8,791 nucleotides of DNA from a virus (Duplodnaviria; Heunggongvirae; Uroviricota; Caudoviricetes), in IMG/VR virus record IMGVR_UViG_2740892488_000005, positions 1 through 8,791 of that record. One strand, 5' to 3'. The notes beneath the pieces were generated by a model. That model made no database searches. It was not told where the DNA came from and was given only the letters and a program-made list of their open reading frames with translations. Of this stretch, positions 1 through 8,791 are shown piece by piece. Position numbers and translations under genes: made by a program. How positions within the stretch are numbered: the first letter of the stretch is position 1; every line of letters begins with the position of its first letter.

Positions 1-46
1 ACTTGTGATAAATCCGAATGGTTTGGTCGCCGTTCGGGGTAACTGG

Positions 47-68
47 CCCGCCTTGTGCGGGTCTTTTT
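47..68 (+). terminator. Putative rho-independent terminator ending an upstream off-window transcript
   Basis: Hairpin CCCGC (47-51) / loop CTTGT / GCGGG (57-61) followed directly by TCTTTTT (62-68). A TAA at 40-42 could be the stop of a gene entering from the left. Confidence 0.45.
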
Positions 69-127
69 GCTATCTAAAGGGTGCCGGTTACGTTTCCGGC
101 GTCGTTATGTTTCCATTACGACCGTAC

Positions 128-200
128 AGGGCTGGTCAGGCCCGGGCTGGTCTTTCCTGTTTTGAGCTGGTCAGGCTCATGGTCAACGCTGGTCAGGCGT
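128..200 (-). repeat. Tandem array of three stem-loops with conserved 7-nt loop (TGGTCAG on plus, CUGACCA if transcribed leftward) and covarying 4-5 bp stems
   Basis: Loops at 133-139, 168-174 and 190-196. Stems GGGC/GCCC (129-132/140-143), TGAGC/GCTCA (163-167/175-179), ACGC/GCGT (186-189/197-200). Same element occurs inverted at 2191-2205 and 4615-4631. Confidence 0.6.
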
Positions 201-291
201 GGTACTTCCTCCGGTCTTTCCCTGGTGTCACGCTGCGGGTTTGGCCTCTCCTGTTGGGGACTCAGGCACAGCGATAAAACCTGGCTGTGTG

Positions 292-319
292 AAAAAATGG
301 CCCATCGTGCGGACTGGGC
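292..319 (-). terminator. Possible intrinsic terminator on the minus strand
   Basis: On the minus strand GCCCA / 10-nt loop / TGGGC (plus 300-304 pairs with 315-319), then C and a T6 run (plus A-run 292-297). Stem is short, so tentative. Confidence 0.3.
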
Positions 320-764
320 AAAGACTAAACACAGCAAATTGATGATGGGCGCCGGAATCGAACCGGGTAACGGGCAGGGAGTTCCCGTTAAACACCTGTT
401 CACCACAACCGGGAGCGCACTCCGCCATTTCAAAATTTAACGACAAAGCTCAAAGTTGAGTCGATGAAGTGCGCTCTCGTGTTGTAGCCAGGACTCTTCC
501 CTGGTGGTCACACCGTATCGCCTTGATGGTGAATCAATCGCTCATACCTGGCTGTGGCTTGCACATTCCGGCTACCTGCTATGGAGACAACGCGTTAAGG
601 CTCCGCTTCCATCCAGACCGCTTCGACACATGTGCCATATGCCGGTGAAGTCTTTCCCTCTGTCACCGTGTTGGCGCCGACGCGCAAAATTTGGTGCCGT
701 CTTTCCGGCTGTCAGAACGTGTTTCTGAACAACTGCCGCTGGGTAAGCGTTGTTGATGAAAGTG

Positions 765-820
765 ACTTTACAATTTGTATTTGTAATGGTCAATGTGTTT
801 TTAAAAAATAATTTGTAGTG
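765..820. promoter_or_regulatory. OL-like operator cluster downstream of the repressor gene
   Basis: AT-rich block with TTTGTA at 774-779, 780-785 and 812-817; palindrome TACAA-T-TTGTA at 769-779; 9-mer ATTTGTAAT (779-787) also present at 1372-1380 in the repressor/cro intergenic region. Confidence 0.4.
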
Positions 821-911
821 AGGGGCAAAAAAATATTCACTGTGTAAAGGTGTTTTTGTGTTAGGGGAAAGTTGCATGCCAGCAGCGGCTGGCCTGGAAA
901 TTTGAACTGAA

Positions 912-1304
912 CTATTTTGTCTGGTTTTTGGCTTCAAGTAGTTCTTTTAGCAGTAGATCGAAGTGCTCTCTTTTTTCTTTTAGCTCATTGATTAATTTAT
1001 TTTTTTCGCTCTCAGGCAGTCCTCTGAATAGTTGCAGTAGAGCCTGTTCTTGCGGGGTTAGTTCTTGATTGTAATTACCCGGGTGTAGTGTGGATTCATC
1101 CAAATATTCCCCTTCATTCATGAAGAAAAAATGAACAGGGTATCCGGTCACTTTTGCTAGCTTGTCTAATTTATCTTTTCTTGGAGTTACCCCATTACAC
1201 CATGCCTGAACTGATTGAGCCGTAACCCCAATATGGCGAGCTAACTCAGATTGAGACCAGCCTAAGTCTTTTAGAATCCGTTGTAGTCGGCTAGCAAAAG
1301 CCAT
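912..1304 (-). CDS. Prophage CI-like repressor, XRE-family HTH, 130 aa, with no LexA-like S24 peptidase domain
   Basis: ORF 912..1304 (-). N-terminal HTH signature (LGWSQSELARHIGVTAQSVQAW) and helical C-terminus; divergent from a cro-like gene across an operator-rich intergenic region. No Shine-Dalgarno within about 15 nt upstream of the ATG, so possibly a short-leader or leaderless mRNA. Confidence 0.8.
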   Translation of the reverse strand: MAFASRLQRILKDLGWSQSELARHIGVTAQSVQAWCNGVTPRKDKLDKLAKVTGYPVHFFFMNEGEYLDESTLHPGNYNQELTPQEQALLQLFRGLPESEKNKLINELKEKREHFDLLLKELLEAKNQTK

Positions 1305-1424
1305 GTTTTTCGTTTTTTGTGTTCATACCGTAAGGATACAAGGTTTAATTGTAGGGAGCATTGCAAATATAATTTGTAATTACAGTTATTGTTTGTAATG
1401 ATGACGCGGACACAAGGAGTCCAT
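1305..1424. promoter_or_regulatory. Divergent promoter/operator region between repressor and cro-like gene (OR-like)
   Basis: AT-rich 120 bp intergenic region with perfect 10-bp palindrome TGTAATTACA (1375-1384), further TTTGTA copies at 1373-1378 and 1392-1397, a TTGCAA -35-like hexamer at 1361-1366, and AAGGAG SD at 1414-1419. Confidence 0.55.
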
Positions 1425-1655
1425 ATGGATAAACAACTGCAAGACAAAATTCTTTCCGTAATGAGTCAATCCGAGTTAGGGCGGCGATTAGGGAAAAAAC
1501 CACAAACGGTAAGCCTCTGGTTCAAAGGACGGGTTCCCGGTGAAGAGGTTTTGCGCACATCTGAAGCTCTTGAATGGCGCGTGACCCCTCATGATCTTAG
1601 ACCGGATCTTTACCCAAACCCAGATGACAGCTTGCCTAAAACGGAAGCAGCTTAA
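1425..1655 (+). CDS. Cro/YdaS-like HTH regulator, 76 aa
   Basis: ATG at 1425 preceded by AAGGAG (1414-1419). The track ORF starts at 1389 but that ATG lies inside the operator repeats with no SD. HTH (SQSELGRRLGKKPQTVSLWF) and the C-terminal HDLRPDLY motif typical of Cro/YdaS-type prophage proteins. Confidence 0.75.
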   Translation: MDKQLQDKILSVMSQSELGRRLGKKPQTVSLWFKGRVPGEEVLRTSEALEWRVTPHDLRPDLYPNPDDSLPKTEAA

Positions 1656-1713
1656 CTGTTGGTGAGCCCCAAATCTGATTAAGCGTAATCAATTTTTAGC
1701 GACAGGAGACGCT

Positions 1714-2190
1714 ATGGAAAACCAAGAGGAATTACAAAAAGAGATTTTGACCTGGGCGGCAAGGGCAGGGCAGGAACTCGTCACGATTGAAATCTGCCGG
1801 GCCTGGTTCAGTCAGGGACGCAATGATGAGTTGAGACTACATGAATTTGAGGACGCGGACGGCAACGTGGACTGGAGAGCCATCAACAACAATCGGCAGA
1901 AAATCTTTCGCTGGTTACGTGGCGAGACAACGGCGGCGCGCCGAAAAACTCAGGTGCTGGCCAGTGTGATGAAAGCCGTGCTACCCGCAGAACGGCGGGC
2001 ACGTCTGGAGTCGCCGGGCGATCCCGTTTTGCTGGCAACGCTGGCGGCAAAAGAAGGGGTGGAAGCGATTAACGCTGTACATCTCCACTTCGCGCCAGAG
2101 TTAACTATTCAGGAAATTGACGAAGCAATAGCGGCGCTGGTAGCGACGCGAGGAGCAGTGATACGCACTGCGCAAGACCACCATGCATGA
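1714..2190 (+). CDS. YdaT-like (CII-analog) prophage regulator, 158 aa
   Basis: ORF 1714..2190 with AGGAG at 1703-1707. Contains the motif NNRQKIFRWLRGETTAARRK, which I recognise from Rac-prophage YdaT-family proteins; sits immediately after the Cro/YdaS-like gene as in Rac-type immunity regions. Confidence 0.65.
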   Translation: MENQEELQKEILTWAARAGQELVTIEICRAWFSQGRNDELRLHEFEDADGNVDWRAINNNRQKIFRWLRGETTAARRKTQVLASVMKAVLPAERRARLESPGDPVLLATLAAKEGVEAINAVHLHFAPELTIQEIDEAIAALVATRGAVIRTAQDHHA

Positions 2191-2229
2191 GCGCCTGACC
2201 AGCGTTTAACTTATACCGAGGAAAGACCG
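2190..2229 (+). promoter_or_regulatory. Stem-loop plus conserved SD leader cassette (copy A)
   Basis: Directly after the TGA at 2188-2190: stem GCGC/GCGT (2191-2194/2202-2205) with loop CTGACCA (2195-2201), 9-nt spacer, then ACCGAGGAAAGACC (2215-2228) and ATG at 2230. Same architecture at 4615-4651. Confidence 0.55.
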
Positions 2230-2388
2230 ATGTTAAGACATATTGACCGCATTACCTGGCGTAACGGCTGGCACCTGAATGGACGCCCGGCACATGTTGC
2301 AGAGATCCGCCCCATATTCGATGGCCGCGTCGCAGCTGCACGTTCTGTATGGGAAAAGTACGAAGAAGAAAAAAGCGAAACTGCGTGA
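2230..2388 (+). CDS. Hypothetical small protein, 52 aa (below the ORF-track size cutoff)
   Basis: ATG 2230 to TGA 2386-2388, translating MLRHIDRITWRNGWHLNGRPAHVAEIRPIFDGRVAARSVWEKYEEEKSETA. Supported by the strong SD (GAGGA) and by the identical 14-nt leader that precedes the 136-aa gene at 4652. Confidence 0.45.
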   Translation: MLRHIDRITWRNGWHLNGRPAHVAEIRPIFDGRVAAARSVWEKYEEEKSETA

Positions 2389-2451
2389 GCAAAATCTCTC
2401 TGGCGCTGCCTATGAGGCTGGCTGTCGCGTTCTCTCAGAGGCTTTGGGCAT

Positions 2452-3042
2452 ATGAACATCCTCCCGTTACTTGATAGACCCATAGCCTTCCAGAGAAGTT
2501 TTATCCGTCTTGAAATGGGCGTGACTGCCGCATTGTTTCTGTCGCAGTTGACGTACTGGACAAACAGAACAACTGACGACGGCTGGGTATATAAAACCCA
2601 GGATGAGTGGGAAGAGGAAACAGGGCTTTCACGATACGAGCAGGAGGGCGCGCGCAAAAAACTACGTGGTCTCGGCGTCTTGCTGGAACGTAAACAGGGC
2701 TTGCCTGCCAGGCTGTACTACAAAATCGATAATGATGTGTTGTGCCAGCTACTTACGTCCGCATACAAGGATGCGGAAAAACCACATACAGGTGAGGGGA
2801 AAACCACCAGGCCTGTACGTGGAAAACCAACAAACATTCTTACAGAGAATACTACAGAGATTATTACTGATGGTGAATCGGCTGACGCCGACACCCAACA
2901 ACCTGCCGACCAGAGAATAAATTATCAGGTGATACTCGATACCTATCACGAGATTTTGCCAGAGATGCCACCAGTGAAAATCCTCACTGACGGCAGAAAA
3001 AAAACACCTTCGCACTTTCTGGAAAAAATTCAATTTCAATGA
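2452..3042 (+). CDS. Phage replication initiation protein (replisome-organiser type, winged-helix N-terminal domain); reading frame probably disrupted near its 3' end
   Basis: ORF 2452..3042 (196 aa); N-terminal region resembles phage O-like/DnaD-like initiator winged-helix domains and lies directly upstream of a DnaB-family helicase. An adjacent frame stays open from 2978 to 3208 and ends overlapping the helicase start, suggesting a +1 frame change at A8 (2997-3004) or A6 (3023-3028). Confidence 0.6.
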   Translation: MNILPLLDRPIAFQRSFIRLEMGVTAALFLSQLTYWTNRTTDDGWVYKTQDEWEEETGLSRYEQEGARKKLRGLGVLLERKQGLPARLYYKIDNDVLCQLLTSAYKDAEKPHTGEGKTTRPVRGKPTNILTENTTEIITDGESADADTQQPADQRINYQVILDTYHEILPEMPPVKILTDGRKKTPSHFLEKIQFQ

Positions 3043-3197
3043 GTCCCGTTGGCGGGCCTATCTGGAATTTATCGGTGGCAATTGTCGCTGGATGCTGGAG
3101 GACAGGCCAAATGGCAGGGGAGGATTCTGGCGGCGTAAAAATCTTGATTATCTGATTACCGAACGCTGCTATGTTTCGGTCAAGGAAGAACGCGCAA

Positions 3198-4613
3198 ATG
3201 ATAAATAACGCGATTGCACTGTACAGCGTTGACGCAGAACAGGCTGTTCTGGGCTGTCTGATGCTGAATACCGACCACGACAGAACCAATGCGGTATTTG
3301 CGTTACTGAAACCGGAAACGTTTTATATCAATGCGCATCAGGTTATCTACCGGGAGATCAAAGGATTATTTCAAGCTGATAAACCAACTGACCTGATAAC
3401 ACTGACCGAACTGATGGAATCGAAGGGGCTGTATGAGCGCGTGGGGGGATTCGCATACCTGGCTGAAATGAGTAAGGCGGCGATTCCGGCCTCAATGGTC
3501 AACTACGCGAAAATTGTACGTGAAAAAGCCATTCTTCGTTATGCCGTGGAAAAGTTGAATTCTTGTCTGGAGATTATGATCCAGCCTGCAGATATGACTG
3601 CTACTGACAGGATCACCGCCGTTCAGCAAGTGATTGGGCAGGTGGCCGAACATTCCCGTACCGGGCATAAGGGCGGTTTGCGTCCGGCAAGTGAAGTCGT
3701 CGATGACTGGATAGATGACCTTGAGCGCCGTTTCAATGATCCAGCACATGCAGCCGGACTAACGCTCGGAATCGAAAGCCTTGATCGCTTAATGGCACCA
3801 AAGCAGGCGTTAAGAGGTTCATTGGTCGTTATTGGTGCCCGGCCAAAAATGGGCAAGACAGCCGCGTTTAATAAAATTGCGGTGCATTTTGCTCTGAATC
3901 ATCGTTTGCCGACGCTGGTATTTAGCCTGGAAATGACTGACAGAAGTCTCATTGAACGCATGGTTGCGCAGGAAGCAAAGGTCAATTCGGAGATTTTTTA
4001 TCTTGGCCCTAACGATGAATCTGAATTGAGTCTCGCAATAGCAAAGGCGGGGGAGATTGCCGAATCCAACATGATGATTGACAGCACGGCAGGTGTAACC
4101 CTTGCGCATATTGTCGCTGAATGTCGAAAAGTTAAACGGATGCGTGGCTCGGTTGGCCTGGTGGCAATTGACTATTTGACGCTGATGAAGACCGAATCGG
4201 CAGAGCGTAGGGATATTGCGTATGGCGATATCACAACCGGTTTGAAGAACCTGGCAAAAGAGCTGGATTGTGTTGTGGTCCTGCTGACGCAACTCAACCG
4301 AAAGCTTGAAGAACGTGCCGATAAGCGGCCTAACCCGAGCGACAGTAAAGATACCGGGCAGATCGAACAAGATTGCGATGTCTGGATTGGCCTCTATCGT
4401 GATGCTGTTTATAACGAAAATGCCGACCCAAATCTCATGGAAATGTTGCTACGTCTGAACCGCGAAGGACCATCGGGAACAGCCTATGCCCTGATGAAAA
4501 ATGGCTCAGTTATTGATATCAGCGATGAGGAGGTTTATCGCCTTACCAACGACCGCTCAGAAAAAAATAAACGTTATTCCCGTAGCGATAATTCTCGCAC
4601 AAATGAATTTTAA
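3198..4613 (+). CDS. DnaB-family replicative DNA helicase (phage-encoded, P22 gp12-like)
   Basis: Track ORF 3171..4613; preferred start is ATG 3198 with AAGGAAG SD at 3183-3189. DnaB N-terminal motif (SVDAEQAVLGCLML), Walker A (GARPKMGKTA), SLEM motif, and LTQLNRKLEERADKRPNPSDSKDTGQIEQDCDVWIGLYRD matching the DnaB H3/H4 region. Confidence 0.9.
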   Translation: MINNAIALYSVDAEQAVLGCLMLNTDHDRTNAVFALLKPETFYINAHQVIYREIKGLFQADKPTDLITLTELMESKGLYERVGGFAYLAEMSKAAIPASMVNYAKIVREKAILRYAVEKLNSCLEIMIQPADMTATDRITAVQQVIGQVAEHSRTGHKGGLRPASEVVDDWIDDLERRFNDPAHAAGLTLGIESLDRLMAPKQALRGSLVVIGARPKMGKTAAFNKIAVHFALNHRLPTLVFSLEMTDRSLIERMVAQEAKVNSEIFYLGPNDESELSLAIAKAGEIAESNMMIDSTAGVTLAHIVAECRKVKRMRGSVGLVAIDYLTLMKTESAERRDIAYGDITTGLKNLAKELDCVVVLLTQLNRKLEERADKRPNPSDSKDTGQIEQDCDVWIGLYRDAVYNENADPNLMEMLLRLNREGPSGTAYALMKNGSVIDISDEEVYRLTNDRSEKNKRYSRSDNSRTNEF

Positions 4614-4614
4614 C

Positions 4615-4651
4615 CACGCCTGACCAGCGTGAAATAACCGAGGAAAGACCA
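4615..4651 (+). promoter_or_regulatory. Stem-loop plus conserved SD leader cassette (copy B)
   Basis: Directly after the helicase TAA (4611-4613): stem CACGC/GCGTG (4615-4619/4627-4631) with loop CTGACCA (4620-4626), 5-nt spacer, then ACCGAGGAAAGACC (4637-4650) and ATG at 4652. Confidence 0.55.
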
Positions 4652-5062
4652 ATGACCACCACTCCAGGCAAATTAGAGTACCCGTCGGACAAAGGACACA
4701 TAGACGACGGTAAAAACTATCTCGACGTCATTTTGTGGAATATGAACGTCGGGCCACGTGCGCGCACTCGCGCGGTTTTTGTGCCAAGACCTAAAGCAGG
4801 CAATTTTTCAACCCCTGCTAAGCCTGCCCGTCAGGCATCCGTAGCCGCAGCGCCAGCAGTGAAACGTAAGGGCAAAACGCACACCGGGATCGCGATTCGC
4901 AGAAATGGTGAGCGGCAAGTGAAACTCCACGAAACAGCGACAACCTGGTGTGCCTCACCGCATGAAACTTACGACAAGATAACCGGGCAGCGCATTGGCG
5001 CGCCTGGTCGCTGCCGCCTGCTGCTGAGTTCCATCACTCCGATAGCAAAGAAAGGGGCGTGA
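4652..5062 (+). CDS. Hypothetical protein, 136 aa
   Basis: ORF 4652..5062 with the conserved SD leader; enterobacterial-style codon usage (CTG, GCG, CCG rich); no competing ORF on either strand. No family recognised. Confidence 0.6.
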   Translation: MTTTPGKLEYPSDKGHIDDGKNYLDVILWNMNVGPRARTRAVFVPRPKAGNFSTPAKPARQASVAAAPAVKRKGKTHTGIAIRRNGERQVKLHETATTWCASPHETYDKITGQRIGAPGRCRLLLSSITPIAKKGA

Positions 5063-5063
5063 T

Positions 5064-5300
5064 ATGGCCGGGCAATCAGATTACCTGCCGCCCGGCTTAC
5101 CACACAACCGCGCCAAATGGCCCCAGGAATACCAGCTTAAAGAGCACTACGACATGCGAGCGGCGGCGCTGATCCGCCAACTCTTTGAGAAACGTATTCC
5201 GAGGGGAAGCGTGATTGAGCAAATCGGAATGACGCCAGATACGTACCGGGAATTTTTCAGAGAGCGTCTGAACTACTGGAGAGGGGTGATGGAACAATGA
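5064..5300 (+). CDS. Hypothetical protein, 78 aa
   Basis: ORF 5064..5300, starting 1 nt after the previous stop; purine-rich AAAGGGG upstream. Its stop overlaps the next start in an ATGA arrangement. Confidence 0.55.
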   Translation: MAGQSDYLPPGLPHNRAKWPQEYQLKEHYDMRAAALIRQLFEKRIPRGSVIEQIGMTPDTYREFFRERLNYWRGVMEQ

Positions 5301-5608
5301 AATACAAACGGTGGGTGCGTGCGGAAGTCGTAATCATCAAACAATGTGCGGGCAGCATGACAGTTGAACGTATAGGGCAGCTTATTGGCAGAACCGGTGC
5401 AGCGGTACGCACAAAAGCGCGCGAGCTGAAAATCTGTATGTATCTGCGGGGTAATTATCACCAGTCAGTGAAATACCTCCAGGAAGATATCGAGCTGGCA
5501 AGGGAATTACATCAGTCGGGTATTAATCGCCAGGATATCGCAGAAAAACTCGAAATGCCGATCGGAGCGGTGAATCAGTTTGTTTATTTTGAGCGGAGAA
5601 TTTCATGA
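5297..5608 (+). CDS. Hypothetical DNA-binding protein with two HTH-like segments, 103 aa
   Basis: ORF 5297..5608; ATGA overlap with the upstream gene. Two helix-turn-helix-like stretches (MTVERIGQLIGRTGAAVRTKAREL and INRQDIAEKLEMPIGAVNQFV); the HTH assignment is inferred from sequence pattern only. Confidence 0.5.
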   Translation: MKYKRWVRAEVVIIKQCAGSMTVERIGQLIGRTGAAVRTKARELKICMYLRGNYHQSVKYLQEDIELARELHQSGINRQDIAEKLEMPIGAVNQFVYFERRIS

Positions 5609-5829
5609 AAGAACTTTTTCTTGCATTTGTGCCCCGGTTTATTAATGACCAGATCGCACTGACTGATAATGGTGAACAATATGAAATTGCCTGCAGCATG
5701 GTGGATGTGAATCCTGGCGAACGGTATGACGCGATGTGTGACCTGAAAATATTTACCTGGCTGGGTTGGGCTATTCCGTGTGGAGAACCAACCAATATTC
5801 GTCCGTTTGAGAGCAGGGAGGCTGTATGA
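5605..5829 (+). CDS. Hypothetical protein, 74 aa
   Basis: ORF 5605..5829; ATGA overlap with the upstream stop, part of the coupled small-gene chain. Confidence 0.5.
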   Translation: MKELFLAFVPRFINDQIALTDNGEQYEIACSMVDVNPGERYDAMCDLKIFTWLGWAIPCGEPTNIRPFESREAV

Positions 5830-5942
5830 GTGAATTGAAAATACGTCGCAAGGCAATAGCACGCGTTAAAAATCTATTACCAGTGCCTGTCAAATATCGT
5901 TTTTGTGGTGGGAATGTACGGATTGGTACGGATGTATGGTGA
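5826..5942 (+). CDS. Possible small ORF, 38 aa
   Basis: ATG 5826 overlapping the upstream stop (ATGA), stop TGA at 5940-5942, translating MSELKIRRKAIARVKNLLPVPVKYRFCGGNVRIGTDVW. Only positional evidence. Confidence 0.3.
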   Translation: MSELKIRRKAIARVKNLLPVPVKYRFCGGNVRIGTDVW

Positions 5943-6016
5943 TTGCGGAGTGACGTAAAACGAATCGTTGTGGGTGTAATATCGTCAATATCATTGGTTT
6001 CCCGGAGGGAAAGGAC

Positions 6017-6238
6017 ATGTTTGGCGATAAACTGGAGTTACCACGGAACGGGCGGATAGTGCTCTATATTTCAGATTACAAAGTAACCCGGGCTGAGGTG
6101 TTGGAACCGGAAAAACATCTGGTCACGTTACCGGACATTATTGAGTTGTATAAGCGGGTCGGATATGTGGACTTGCATCGCGATGATGTTCCCGTTGAGT
6201 GTATGGAATGTGAACACCGGAGGTTTGAAGTTGATTGA
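6017..6238 (+). CDS. Hypothetical protein, 73 aa
   Basis: ORF 6017..6238 preceded by GGAGGGAAAGG; followed about 90 nt downstream by a terminator-like hairpin plus T7. Confidence 0.5.
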   Translation: MFGDKLELPRNGRIVLYISDYKVTRAEVLEPEKHLVTLPDIIELYKRVGYVDLHRDDVPVECMECEHRRFEVD

Positions 6239-6329
6239 ATTGACTTAGAAAAAGTCCGGGGCTATAGTTTCCGCGCAGCCGCAAAATCGGTTGCCGGGAT
6301 TGGCGTCCCGGATATCTAAGTGACGCATA

Positions 6330-6349
6330 GCCGCGTTAGCGGTTTTTTT
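6330..6349 (+). terminator. Putative intrinsic terminator closing the small-gene operon
   Basis: GCCGC (6330-6334) / loop GTTA / GCGG (6339-6342) followed by T7 (6343-6349). Short stem, moderate confidence. Confidence 0.45.
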
Positions 6350-6448
6350 ATGTGTTAGGCACGGCCACATTCGCATTATGGTGGGCTGTGTGGGGGCTTC
6401 TGTGGAAGCGCCGGGTTCACTTAGCCGGTTACGCCAACCCTGCACAGC

Positions 6449-6481
6449 TCACCACCAGATGATTGGCGTCGCTGGTGGTGA
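6449..6481. promoter_or_regulatory. Perfect 10-bp inverted repeat immediately upstream of the antirepressor start
   Basis: TCACCACCAG (6449-6458), 13-nt spacer ATGATTGGCGTCG, CTGGTGGTGA (6472-6481); right arm contains the Chi octamer GCTGGTGG (6471-6478). Antirepressor SD AAGTGAGG at 6495-6502 and ATG at 6511. Confidence 0.4.
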
Positions 6482-6510
6482 TGAAAAAAACACTAAGTGA
6501 GGCCACTGCG

Positions 6511-7300
6511 ATGACAGTCCAAATATCTGCGGAATCCCTTTCTCCGCTACATCATAACCAACTTCCCGTCATCACTACTGAATTGCTTGCCAGTTTGTAT
6601 GGCACGGAAGTAAATGGTATCCAGCAAAACTTCAAGCGCAACATCGCCAGATTTGTCGTAGGAAAGCATTTTTTTTAAGCTGGAAGGTAATGAATTACGC
6701 GACTTCAAAAACAGACTGACAGATAGTCAGTCAGTTGCTAAACATACCCGATCCCTCATTCTCTGGACAGAACGCGGCGCAGCTCGCCATGCCAAAATGC
6801 TGGAAACAGAACAGGCCTGGGAAGTTTTCGAAAAGCTGGAAGATTGTTATTTTAGCCAGCGTCCAGAGAGGCGGAGTACAACTACCGATGACCGTACTCC
6901 CTTGCGTGATGCCGTTAATATACTGGTCGGCAAGAAAGGCATGATGTATCCCGATGCCTACACCATGATTCATCAACGCTTCGCCGTCTCTCACATAGAA
7001 CAACTGTCACAGACGCAAATGTTAGAGGCGATTGAATACATCCACTGCCTGCTACTCGATGAAAATCACCCAACCATTCCAGATTTTTCTTTTATCACCA
7101 CTATCAAAAATGGAAAAGTGACCGGGATGCGCCATGTTGCCAAAGGCGAACATCTGATGACCTTTGACGCTTTCAAAGAGATCGCTGAGCGGGCAGGGTA
7201 TCTGGTGATCCACAGCGACAATCTGCGAAGTATGACACTGGATAAATTGATGGTAATGGGGAAAAAGTCGGCTATATCCGTTGCTAATTCAGCATTTTGA
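6511..7300 (+). pseudogene. Phage antirepressor-type regulatory protein, interrupted by a frameshift in a T8 run
   Basis: N-terminal part in frame 1 (6511-6678, ends GKHFF-stop) and C-terminal part in frame 2 (track ORF 6797..7300, open from 6677). Removing one T from T8 (6669-6676) gives a continuous ~262-aa protein with the conserved stretch GKHFFKLEGNELRDFKN...SLILWTERGAARHAKMLETEQAWEVFEKLEDCYF, which I recognise as antirepressor-like. Confidence 0.65.
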
Positions 7301-7427
7301 CAGGTTGTTTGGGGCGGAAATACTCTATTTGCGCTTAAAAAGGTATTTGACCACGACCAGCACGAGACCGAATACCTCTGTCAAAGTACCGCCCATATAA
7401 AACAGTTACATATGCACTTGATGACTA

Positions 7428-7459
7428 AGCTGGCACCAGGTTAACACCTGGCGCCAGCT
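7428..7459. other. Strong near-perfect hairpin between convergent genes (14-bp stem, one mismatch, 4-nt loop)
   Basis: AGCTGGCACCAGGT (7428-7441) / TAAC / ACCTGGCGCCAGCT (7446-7459). No U-tract on either strand, so not a canonical intrinsic terminator. Confidence 0.4.
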
Positions 7460-7589
7460 TGAAGGAGACTTCAGTTATTGGTTTCTGAGGAAAGCGATTC
7501 TTGAAAGGGTCATTTGCGTCTGGCAGTCGACCATTTTCTTGACTTCAGCATCTGTTCCCTGCATTGAAACTTTACCGCACATAGCATCC

Positions 7590-8294
7590 TTAGTTTTGAT
7601 CCACTGACGCTGAGAAGGCAGCAAATCTTTTTTTCTTCGCCGGGGTTAACTTGCTCCAGACGGTACTCAAATCAGAGTCGGCATTCGCAAATGCCATTCG
7701 GGACTGATCAAGGTTGTCAGCTTTTTGCGGCTGAAGTTGTGCCTGTCTCTCTATTTGCTTCTCCGCCTCATACTTAGCCTGTTCTTGCGCCCTGAGTTGC
7801 ACCTGTTGTTCCGCTTCAATTTGACTCTGTTGGGCATCCTTAGCCTGCTGGATTTTCTGCTGCTCAACGATCGGGGTGATAATGGAAAGCGATGTCAGTA
7901 AAGCGGCGCCCACTGATATCGGATTATCAGTAGAGGTTTTTACAAAAACGTTTTTCTGATCGTCGGTCGCCTGCACGGTGTAGGTGATACGTTTTGAAAA
8001 GGCGTTTGCGTTGTTCTCCAAAAACAGGCTTTCCATTTGCTTATCGAGATTACGATTAAAATTCTTTCTGTAAGCATCTGAAAGCTGGACGTACTCGTTC
8101 GCAGATAGAGTCATCGTCACGGTCCCTTCACAAGTTTTCATTGTGCTGCCCGTGTCACTTGATGTTGTGGAGATCTCAGAGATGGCTAGTTTGATCTTGT
8201 CCAGTGTGCTTCGTTTGGTCTGATTAGTGACATCAGGGTATTTATCGACCTGTTCAGAGAGTCCTTCATAAGCAGATTTTTTTAATAAATCCAT
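7590..8294 (-). CDS. Hypothetical protein, 234 aa: N-terminal domain, central hydrophobic helix, Gln/Glu-rich coiled-coil C-terminal region
   Basis: ORF 7590..8294 (-). Hydrophobic stretch ISVGAALLTSLSIITPIV followed by a heptad-like Q/E/A-rich segment. Frame stays open upstream of the ATG until a stop at plus 8358-8360, inside the IS end, so the native 5' end or promoter may have been displaced by the IS insertion. Confidence 0.55.
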   Translation of the reverse strand: MDLLKKSAYEGLSEQVDKYPDVTNQTKRSTLDKIKLAISEISTTSSDTGSTMKTCEGTVTMTLSANEYVQLSDAYRKNFNRNLDKQMESLFLENNANAFSKRITYTVQATDDQKNVFVKTSTDNPISVGAALLTSLSIITPIVEQQKIQQAKDAQQSQIEAEQQVQLRAQEQAKYEAEKQIERQAQLQPQKADNLDQSRMAFANADSDLSTVWSKLTPAKKKRFAAFSASVDQN

Positions 8295-8420
8295 GAGAGC
8301 TGACTGGGTTATTTCCGAAGAACAACCGATCTCATCTTTTTTGTTATCTGAAGTGGTTTACTGAATTTGGCCACCTGAACAGAGGTGATATGCTCACCTC
8401 AGAACAACACAGGTGCCATA

Positions 8421-8721
8421 ATGAAAAAAAGAAATTTCAGCGCAGAGTTTAAACGCGAATCCGCTCAACTGGTCGTTGACCAGAATTACACCGTGGCAGA
8501 TGCAGCCAGCGCTATGGATGTCGGCCTTTCCACAATGACGCGATGGGTGAAACAATTACGTGATGAGCGGCAGGGAAAACACCAAAAGCCTCCCCTATTA
8601 CCCCGGAACAAATTGAAATCCGTGAGCTCAGGAAAAAGCTACAACGTATTGAAATGGAAAATGAAATATTAAAAAGGCTACCGCGCTCTTGATGTCAGAC
8701 TCCCTGAACAGTTCTCGATAA
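8421..8721 (+). pseudogene. IS3-family transposase OrfA (HTH plus leucine-zipper regulator), apparently frameshifted twice
   Basis: [53 protein letters not shown] in frame 3 (from 8421); expected continuation [27 protein letters not shown] in frame 2 from 8597; expected C-terminus [14 protein letters not shown] in frame 1 ending at TAA 8719-8721. Frame changes coincide with an A4 run (8576-8579) and the A5G slippery-site region (8671-8676). Confidence 0.65.
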
Positions 8722-8791
8722 TCGGGAAACTCAGGGCGCGTTATCCTGTGGCCACTCTCTGCCATGTGTTCGGGGTCCATCGCAGCAGCTA
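8676..8791 (+). CDS. IS3-family transposase OrfB, N-terminal part (3' end beyond the window)
   Basis: Frame 3 open from 8676 to the window end with a typical OrfB N-terminus ([16 protein letters not shown]). Confidence 0.6.

Follow-up and report, generated by a model that had tools for sequence, protein, structure and literature searches.

A replication-initiator gene split by one extra A in an ST131-type Escherichia coli prophage, probably through a homopolymer miscall

In the prophage sequence analysed here, a lambda-O-like replication-initiator gene is split between two reading frames by one extra A in a base run. This A is in all likelihood a homopolymer miscall made in sequencing or assembly and not a change in the DNA of the organism, since six other private base-run indels and not a single substitution were found in the same 8 kb. 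Such a technical origin is what we infer from the sequence comparisons, and the real initiator gene is probably intact. The window, by which we mean the whole stretch of 8,791 nt under analysis, represents a prophage of ST131-type E. coli, of a lambdoid kind that is common in such strains. Biologically the locus is unremarkable and has been annotated before: it pairs an O-like initiator, intact in its normal form, with a DnaB-type helicase.

One initiator gene in two frames

The split gene and the gene that follows it comprise these features:

2452-3208, plus strand: whole replication-initiator gene, 757 nt in the window; 756 nt and 251 aa in its intact form (WP_001023813.1)
2452-3042, plus strand: frame-1 truncated ORF, from ATG 2452 to TGA 3040-3042, 196 aa, ending in ILTDGRKKTPSHFLEKIQFQ and the stop codon
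2997-3004, plus strand: run of eight A's (A8) at which the frame shifts; all complete E. coli genomes with the gene have A7 here
3005-3208, plus strand: frame-2 continuation, encoding most of the conserved C-terminal helical domain (residues 185-251 of the intact protein)
3023-3028, plus strand: A6 run, the same in intact genes, encoding the KK of a conserved FWKKF motif
3198-4613, plus strand: DnaB-type replicative helicase, 471 aa (Pfam DnaB and DnaB_C), its start overlapping the initiator stop by 11 nt

According to an earlier note on this DNA, frame 1 closed at TGA 3040-3042, frame 2 remained open from 2978 to TAA 3206-3208, and the frame-2 stop overlapped the helicase ATG at 3198 in ATGATAAATAA. 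All these coordinates were confirmed; frame 2 opens after TGA 2975-2977 and comprises 76 sense codons plus the stop, and RefSeq annotates the same helicase start. The 196-aa ORF spans a putative winged-helix domain at the N-terminus and the linker, reaches ~30 residues into the C-terminal domain, and finishes with a tail of 12 residues that are out of frame (TPSHFLEKIQFQ). One extra A in the seven-A run (2997-3004) shifts the frame after residue 184; frame 1 then terminates at 3042, leaving the C-terminal domain stranded in frame 2. Two runs had been proposed as the site of the extra base, and the first of them, A8, was borne out, whereas the A6 run at 3023-3028 is identical in intact genes and was ruled out.

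In E. coli SK1144, S14 and ATCC BAA-2469 the initiator does extend to the position of 3208, as proposed: its CDS runs unbroken for 756 nt, and the 251-aa product ends in ERANDK and a stop codon lying on the helicase ATG. Within this gene, the sole difference between the window and these three genomes is A8 versus A7 at 2997-3004. WP_001023813.1, which carries the annotated names 'replication protein' or 'hypothetical protein', is found in ST131/O25b:H4-type strains such as SK1144, JJ2434 and ATCC BAA-2469; over the whole gene its DNA is identical to that of the window bar one A, the A8 in place of A7 leaving the window with an ORF of 196 aa plus an orphan tail in frame 2. The neighbours are also the same in WP_001023813.1 genomes (repressor, YdaS/YdaT-like genes, 74-aa ORF and DnaB helicase). 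All of the 416 complete E. coli genomes with the gene matched a 78-nt probe across the run with one gap and none matched it exactly, and the best full-gene match likewise contained one gap. Comparison with orthologues had been named beforehand as the refuting test: none of them ended at the position of 3042, and all carried the frame-2 domain.

The earlier argument that an open stretch of this length was unlikely by chance is weak by itself. Comparable open stretches are common in the window, among them opposite-strand non-genic ORFs of 96-183 aa at 2749-3039, 2984-3289 and 3819-4370, and by our own arithmetic the chance of the frame-2 open stretch, taken as (61/64)^76, is ~0.03. What places the stretch beyond chance is homology, that is, its PHROG matches and its alignment to gp14, the replication protein of Pectobacterium phage ZF40. 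The frame-2 peptide matched profile positions 228-292 of 297 in PHROG 345 (E 3e-22) and also matched PHROG 24933 (E 2e-27), and it corresponds residue for residue to the C-terminal part of ZF40 gp14, whose last ~95 residues are homologous with 72% DNA identity over 281 nt. Judged by these matches, the frame-2 tail is real coding sequence, and the domain that it encodes is the best conserved one in this lambda-O-like phage initiator.

Private base-run indels across the window

Over 8,348 aligned bases, the window differed from each of three independent genomes by seven single-base indels and zero substitutions, and the three reference genomes agreed with one another at all seven sites. Six of these indels lengthen an A/T run of 4-7 bases by one base (+1 insertions), and the seventh is the loss of a C from a CC doublet. 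Besides the A8 of the initiator, they are located as follows:

64-68, unstranded: T5 versus T4 in the references, a private insertion outside any annotated gene
351-352, unstranded: CC doublet of the references reduced to a single C, the only deletion among the seven
1313-1318, unstranded: T6 versus T5 in the references, in the repressor/cro-like intergenic region
2369-2374, plus strand: A6 versus A5 in the references, splitting the 74-aa gene just upstream of the initiator (2230-2455) into ORFs of 52 aa and 58 aa
6669-6676, plus strand: T8 versus T7 in the references, frameshifting the ORF6N (antirepressor-like) gene, 6511-7300
7628-7634, minus strand: T7 versus T6 in the references, frameshifting an LprI-family gene

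Otherwise intact genes are disrupted by four of the seven (the 74-aa ORF, the initiator, ORF6N and LprI), and there was no sign of selection having filtered these indels. According to a rough estimate of our own, two of the eight 7-base A/T runs of the reference were over-called in the window, which corresponds to ~25% per run; A8 is seen on only ~1% of public contigs (11 versus at least 1000). The indel in the initiator is confined to a mononucleotide run that is A7 in the three aligned genomes and in the 416 probe matches, and the other indels of like kind nearby all lie in base runs and are unaccompanied by substitutions, as befits a miscall. The earlier conclusion that an extra base broke the initiator thus stands as a description of the sequence, with the qualification that the assembly, rather than the organism, is the likeliest place of the break.

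The main value of these observations is quality control. The source assembly appears to contain ~1 homopolymer indel per kilobase, and apparent frameshifts and pseudogenes in it, of which there are at least four in the window, are to be distrusted pending a read check. The A7 tract is moreover recurrent as an indel site in public assemblies, and could mislead counts of 'defective' ST131 prophages taken from draft genomes.

Other origins for the extra A

Alternatively, replication slippage in A7 could have added a real A, in which case the initiator would be truncated after residue 184 with loss of its helicase-associated domain, and the prophage would be non-replicating as a result of ordinary decay or domestication. 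We hold this explanation to be unlikely for the window, while public contigs offer it some support. The exact 196-aa product, and with it the same A8 allele, occurred on 11 other public contigs derived from independent samples, compared with at least 1000 for the 251-aa form, and A8 was the only difference from the reference in L007 (GCA_030310215.1, 11.9 kb aligned) and in the short contigs L011-L013. It is therefore probable that some members of the population carry a genuine A8 that arose from A7 by slippage. None of the other indels of the window was present in any of these 11 contigs, and the upstream 74-aa ORF was intact in those that span it. Furthermore, A6 and A8 alleles appeared in two allelic backgrounds, with an A6 allele (P0016, 233 aa) on five contigs and an A8 version of a 255-aa allele (P0017); the tract is hence a recurrent indel site, whatever the reason, and slippage at it may happen in real DNA too. 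In a lysogen, selection on repressed prophage genes is weak, and the IS3 insertion near the end of the window implies some real decay of this prophage.

Against a genuine mutation, the A8 of the window does not stand alone: the same 8.3 kb contain six other private homopolymer indels and not one substitution. Extrapolated, such a density of indels would amount to thousands of frameshifts per genome, a load inviable even for a mismatch-repair mutator, which would gather transitions too. A8 was present in none of the 416 complete genomes, a count in which real frameshifted alleles may be under-represented, RefSeq 'complete genome' assemblies being quality-filtered, and some of the other A8 contigs (L006 and L008-L010) contain additional homopolymer indels themselves. 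A miscall is hence the origin that we prefer for the extra A of the window.

Less probable still, and in our judgement decidedly improbable, is that the A7 tract constitutes a hypermutable site with genuine A6 and A8 alleles segregating in E. coli ST131, forming a reversible switch that turns prophage replication off and is partly rescued by polymerase or ribosome slippage, with the A_AAA_AAA motif also allowing -1 frameshifting. If this were true, inducibility of the prophage would depend on the tract as a contingency switch, and the A_AAA_AAA phasing (AGA AAA AAA in frame) could give rise to low-level -1 frameshifting whose product would be exactly the 196-aa origin-binding fragment.

Mismatch-repair defects lead to higher indel rates in homopolymers, and all seven differences are located in base runs, as would be the case if the source strain lacked mismatch repair and all seven indels were real. 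Such a mutator lineage was rejected as very improbable owing to the lack of substitutions, since mutators also pile up many transitions; in addition, the occurrence of six of the seven indels as insertions in A/T runs points to a technical bias, and ~0.8 indels per kb with four genes broken in 8 kb would be implausible genome-wide.

The least credible origin of the split is programmed recoding, in which the A-run would serve as a slippery site: +1 ribosomal frameshifting there, or RNA-polymerase slippage dropping one A, would restore the full-length initiator, and the gene would be built to give a short and a long product, like dnaX or IS elements. PMC1088944 and PMC1851650 describe A-runs as places where RNA polymerase and ribosomes slip in bacteria, some leaky frame restoration on an A8 tract is plausible, and an A-run at the junction of two frames is also what dnaX-type recoding and A-run transcriptional slippage present, a likeness that is one of resemblance only. 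Programmed frameshifting and transcriptional slippage were nevertheless rejected, because neither the two-frame arrangement nor the slippery run is conserved among orthologues: the normal gene is single-frame in all 416 complete E. coli genomes, in ZF40 and, through the site, in each of the 41 related loci that other genera supplied. At the aligned site only Escherichia has an A-run as long as 7, the longest elsewhere being 2-5 (A5, as AAA AAG, in ZF40), and the second Lys is variable. Selection against slippage is evident in a large proportion of bacterial genomes from runs of approximately nine A/T (PMC1088944), an onset above the length of A8. A promoter and terminator scan detected no terminator-like stem-loop near the frameshift site.

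Initiator domains, helicase partner and a candidate origin

Residues 21-251 of the intact initiator matched profile positions 41-292 of 297 in PHROG 345, 'replication initiation O-like' (E 2.4e-58), and the N-terminal part matched PHROG 9773 (E 7e-44). Neither half of the protein had a match in Pfam-A at E <= 1, nor had the initiator any in NCBIfam at E <= 0.1, the lambda O family included; it is thus O-like by PHROG and by position, but falls outside the curated lambda O family. The AlphaFold model is two-domain. Residues 1-108 show a helix and strand pattern typical of a winged helix (pLDDT 85-93), for which the best Foldseek matches in the PDB were weak (E ~1e-2) and consisted of the N-domains of plasmid initiators (4pt7, 4pql and 5kbj) together with MarR-like winged-helix proteins; a PDB sequence search with the family profile likewise gave weak winged-helix matches only (E 0.13-0.24). 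Residues 154-251 were modelled with a pLDDT of about 90, and Foldseek yielded no informative match in the PDB for the C-terminal domain. The shift falls inside the helix formed by residues 180-192, and most of the invariant columns of the family alignment lie in residues 165-250, so that the lost C-terminal part is essential-looking. The putative N-terminal winged-helix domain probably binds the origin, while the highly conserved C-terminal helical domain, separated from it by a disordered linker whose DNA holds iteron-like repeats, probably recruits the phage DnaB-type helicase.

Coupling of both genes is shared with ZF40, where gp14 and gp15 (a DnaB-like helicase) present the same 11-nt overlap between initiator stop and helicase ATG within a common gene order (cI, cro-like, cII-like, small ORF, initiator, helicase), and the helicase directly follows the initiator in 37 of the 41 related loci. 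Conservation with ZF40 gp14 is mostly C-terminal, the whole protein being 41% identical and the N-terminal DNA-binding domain aligning poorly. The RepO proteins of Klebsiella and E. coli (about 330 aa) are ~80% identical over the N-terminal ~140 residues, whereas their C-terminal part is longer and different, coverage reaching only 55%. The conserved C-terminal ~95 residues are a module travelling with the phage DnaB helicase, whereas phages exchange the N-terminal DNA-binding domain. The phage collection returned ZF40 in a distant search mode; in the near-identity search, the initiator gene had no match and the only match to the whole window was the IS element at 8349-8791. This IS3-family insertion lies at 8349, in the LprI gene of the window's prophage.

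The initiator occupies the following setting:

Gene order, plus strand, early-right operon position: repressor, YdaS/cro-like, YdaT, small ORF, initiator, DnaB helicase
2775-2831, plus strand: three iteron-like repeats GG(G/A)AAA(A)CCA(C/A)C, at 2775, 2797 and 2821, candidate phage origin

Two of the three repeats were returned by a repeat search and the third was read by eye. They are short (11 nt), spaced 22-24 nt, and followed by an AT-rich stretch at ~2836-2870; the DNA in which they sit encodes the disordered linker of the initiator. The gene shares the lambda O position with lambda O-type initiators (PHROG 345 and 9773), and the putative iterons and AT-rich stretch inside it would be a further likeness; the partner of the initiator in the window is a phage DnaB-type helicase and not, as in lambda, a P-type loader. 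The repeats at 2775-2831 and the adjoining AT-rich stretch may be regarded as a candidate phage origin.

Intact form of the initiator and site of the extra base

The coordinates that the earlier note assigned to the frames, stops, helicase ATG, A8 and A6 all proved correct on re-check:

2452-3042, + strand: frame-1 ORF of the initiator, ATG 2452 to TGA 3040-3042, 196 aa
2978-3208, + strand: frame-2 open stretch, from directly past TGA 2975-2977 to TAA 3206-3208
2997-3004: A8 run
3023-3028: A6 run
3198-3200, + strand: start ATG of the DnaB-type helicase, 471 aa (Pfam DnaB N-terminal domain, E 3e-26; C-terminal domain, E 2e-62)

The frame-2 stop and the helicase ATG overlap within ATGATAAATAA. 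The initiator, a PHROG 345 member, already bears the annotation 'replication protein'; since it matched no Pfam or NCBIfam initiator model, we regard it as O-like by position, architecture and PHROG rather than as a proven lambda O family member.

Among complete E. coli genomes, 415-416 contain a prophage 99.9% identical to the window; many of these are labelled O25b:H4 or ST131. In the genome of SK1144, where a tRNA-Gly/Cys/Leu cluster adjoins the prophage, the initiator is an uninterrupted CDS of 756 nt (251 aa, WP_001023813.1), and A8 in the window versus A7 in SK1144 at 2997-3004 is the sole difference within the gene. A 78-nt probe spanning the A-run matched 416 genomes, with one gap in 416/416 and exactly in none. 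These data support an initiator reaching to 3208 that was broken by one additional base. The extension proposed in the earlier note is thus borne out, the SK1144 gene ending on the helicase ATG as predicted; as to the two runs named there as possible sites of the insertion, A8 is the site, whereas A6 is the same in the intact gene.

The frame-2 stretch is taken as coding because of its homology and not of its open length. The argument that 77 open codons would be improbable by chance is weak, as non-genic ORFs of 96-183 aa occur several times on the antisense strand here. A distant DNA search of a phage collection gave 72% identity between 2921-3201 and the 3' end of gp14 running into gp15 of Pectobacterium phage ZF40, which encode a replication protein and a DnaB-like helicase, respectively. 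ZF40 gp14 ends ...ILTDARKKTIRAFWKKFKFTPDRWQAYLKYISTHCRWMMEDRPNGRGGFWKRKNIDYLVTERCYVAVKEERANDQ*. Its counterpart in the window is split between frame 1 (...ILTDGRKK) and, after it, frame 2 (HLRTFWKKFNFNESRWRAYLEFIGGNCRWMLEDRPNGRGGFWRRKNLDYLITERCYVSVKEERANDK*), and the two DNA sequences align with a single gap of one base, directly 3' of the A-run. The frame-2 peptide alone matched PHROG 345 ('replication initiation O-like') at positions 228-292 of 297, that is, at the profile end (E 3e-22), as well as PHROG 24933.

Origin of the frameshift

Window 1-8348 was aligned to three independent genomes (SK1144, S14 and ATCC BAA-2469). Each alignment showed the same 0 substitutions and seven single-base indels, and the three references mutually agree at all seven sites.

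Single-base indels of the window relative to the three reference genomes
64: window T5, references T4; outside annotated genes
352: window without one C of the references' CC doublet; outside annotated genes
1313: window T6, references T5; repressor/cro-like intergenic region
2369 (run 2369-2374): window A6, references A5; 74-aa gene 2230-2455, just 5' of the initiator, broken into ORFs of 52 aa and 58 aa
2997: window A8, references A7; initiator broken
6669 (run 6669-6676): window T8, references T7; ORF6N-domain (antirepressor-like) gene 6511-7300, 262 aa in references, frameshifted
7628 (run 7628-7634): window T7, references T6; LprI-family gene 7475-8348, minus strand, 307 aa in references, frameshifted

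Because these private indels fall only in base runs, are mostly insertions in A/T runs, come without substitutions and reach a density of ~0.8 per kb, they bear the signature of homopolymer miscalls. We therefore consider it likely that the extra A arose as an error of sequencing or assembly, the real gene being intact; the frameshift is most probably of technical cause and no biological feature. Indels 64 and 352 both lie within 1-911 (L002 11902-12911, in coordinates of that locus), a ~1-kb region 5' of the repressor gene that carries no annotated gene in RefSeq genomes and holds ORFs of 105-121 aa.

The A8 allele also occurs in public data. The exact 196-aa product was found on 11 other contigs of a public protein collection, versus at least 1000 for the 251-aa form, and A8 was present in all nine of these contigs that were aligned. 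In four of them (L006, L008, L009 and L010) A8 is not the only homopolymer indel of the prophage; the others include an A7 to A8 change close to the 3' terminus of the helicase gene (L002 16558), common to two runs of one project. These assemblies thus appear prone to error, a pattern suggestive of systematic, platform-specific errors in public data. In L007 (GCA_030310215.1, 11.9 kb aligned) and the short contigs L011-L013, A8 is the sole difference. An A6 allele (P0016, 233 aa) occurs on five contigs, and P0017 is the A8 version of a related 255-aa allele; the A7 tract is thus a recurrent indel site in assemblies, where some indels may be genuine slippage mutations in silent prophages. The window derives from none of the A8 contigs: the 74-aa ORF is intact in those that cover it, and the window's other six indels were found in none of those examined. 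With real A8 estimated in ~1% of contigs and over-calls at 2/8 seven-base runs of the window, the odds strongly favour error in the window.

Programmed recoding was rejected on the basis of 41 related loci, scanned with one genome per species (Escherichia, Rouxiella, Providencia, Xenorhabdus, Photorhabdus, Aeromonas, Morganella, Yersinia, Enterobacter, Pantoea and other genera): all 41 read through the site in a single frame for the C-terminal domain, the A-run is not kept (A7 in Escherichia whittamii only, 2-5 A's in the others), and the second Lys codon varies. According to Baranov et al. (PMC1088944), a large share of bacterial genomes show selection against slippage-prone runs once these reach about nine A/T. 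Some leaky slippage may occur on A7 or A8, with nothing pointing to its use. A living lineage in which all seven indels are real is not compatible with the data, since ~0.8 per kb is too high even for a mismatch-repair mutator, which would moreover show transitions.

Domain architecture and candidate origin

An AlphaFold model of the initiator (16-sequence alignment, mean pLDDT 77) comprises:

residues 1-108: winged-helix-like N-terminal domain
residues 109-153: disordered linker
residues 154-251: helical C-terminal domain, confidently modelled

The N-terminal domain matched PDB entries at best weakly, the top ones being DNA-binding domains of plasmid initiators (4pt7, 4pql, 5kbj). The linker-encoding DNA contains iteron-like 11-mers 22-24 nt apart (GGAAAAACCAC at 2775, GGGAAAACCAC at 2797 and GGAAAACCAAC at 2821), followed by an AT-rich stretch. 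From its sequence, the whole segment (2775-2870) is a candidate phage origin of replication, in a layout resembling that of lambda, where O itself contains the origin.

The N-terminal ~140 residues share about 80% identity with 'RepO' proteins, whose C-terminal part is unlike that of the window's initiator. Conversely, the C-terminal module is common to proteins with non-matching N-terminal domains, the match starting at query residues 90-160 in most of the 41 loci, and ZF40 gp14 likewise gives a poor alignment in the N-terminal part. Directly 3' of this module, 37 of the 41 loci carry a DnaB-type helicase homologous to that of the window. Relatives at L017, L018 and L019 (Pantoea, Buttiauxella) run beyond the end position of the window's protein, the two from Pantoea ending ...YAIPxGFRGx; these loci, with no DnaB-type helicase homologue within 1.5 kb downstream, are exceptions to the initiator-helicase pairing. 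In the simplest reading, the N-terminal domain would bind the origin and the C-terminal domain would recruit the phage helicase. As the frameshift, after residue 184, sits within modelled helix 180-192, an origin-binding fragment unable to load the helicase would be the expected product of a real A8 allele, and the prophage would be replication-dead.

Immunity module and insertion element

Further features were recognized downstream, the RNA matches (Rfam) all above the gathering score:

6262-6314, + strand: a1/b1 target of C4 antisense RNA
6275-6349, + strand: isrK sRNA, 80 bits
6374-6459, + strand: C4 antisense RNA, 75 bits
8349-8791: end of an IS3-family element, ISEc52-like, starting TGAAGTGG...

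The three RNA matches (6262-6459) lie directly 5' of the ORF6N gene, and together this region is a P1/P7-style C4-antirepressor immunity module within a lambdoid prophage. The ISEc52-like element interrupts the 5' part of the LprI-family gene, whose 5' end is thereby cut off at 8349; in the reference genomes checked this site is uninterrupted, and ISEc52 copies lie elsewhere in or near the prophage.
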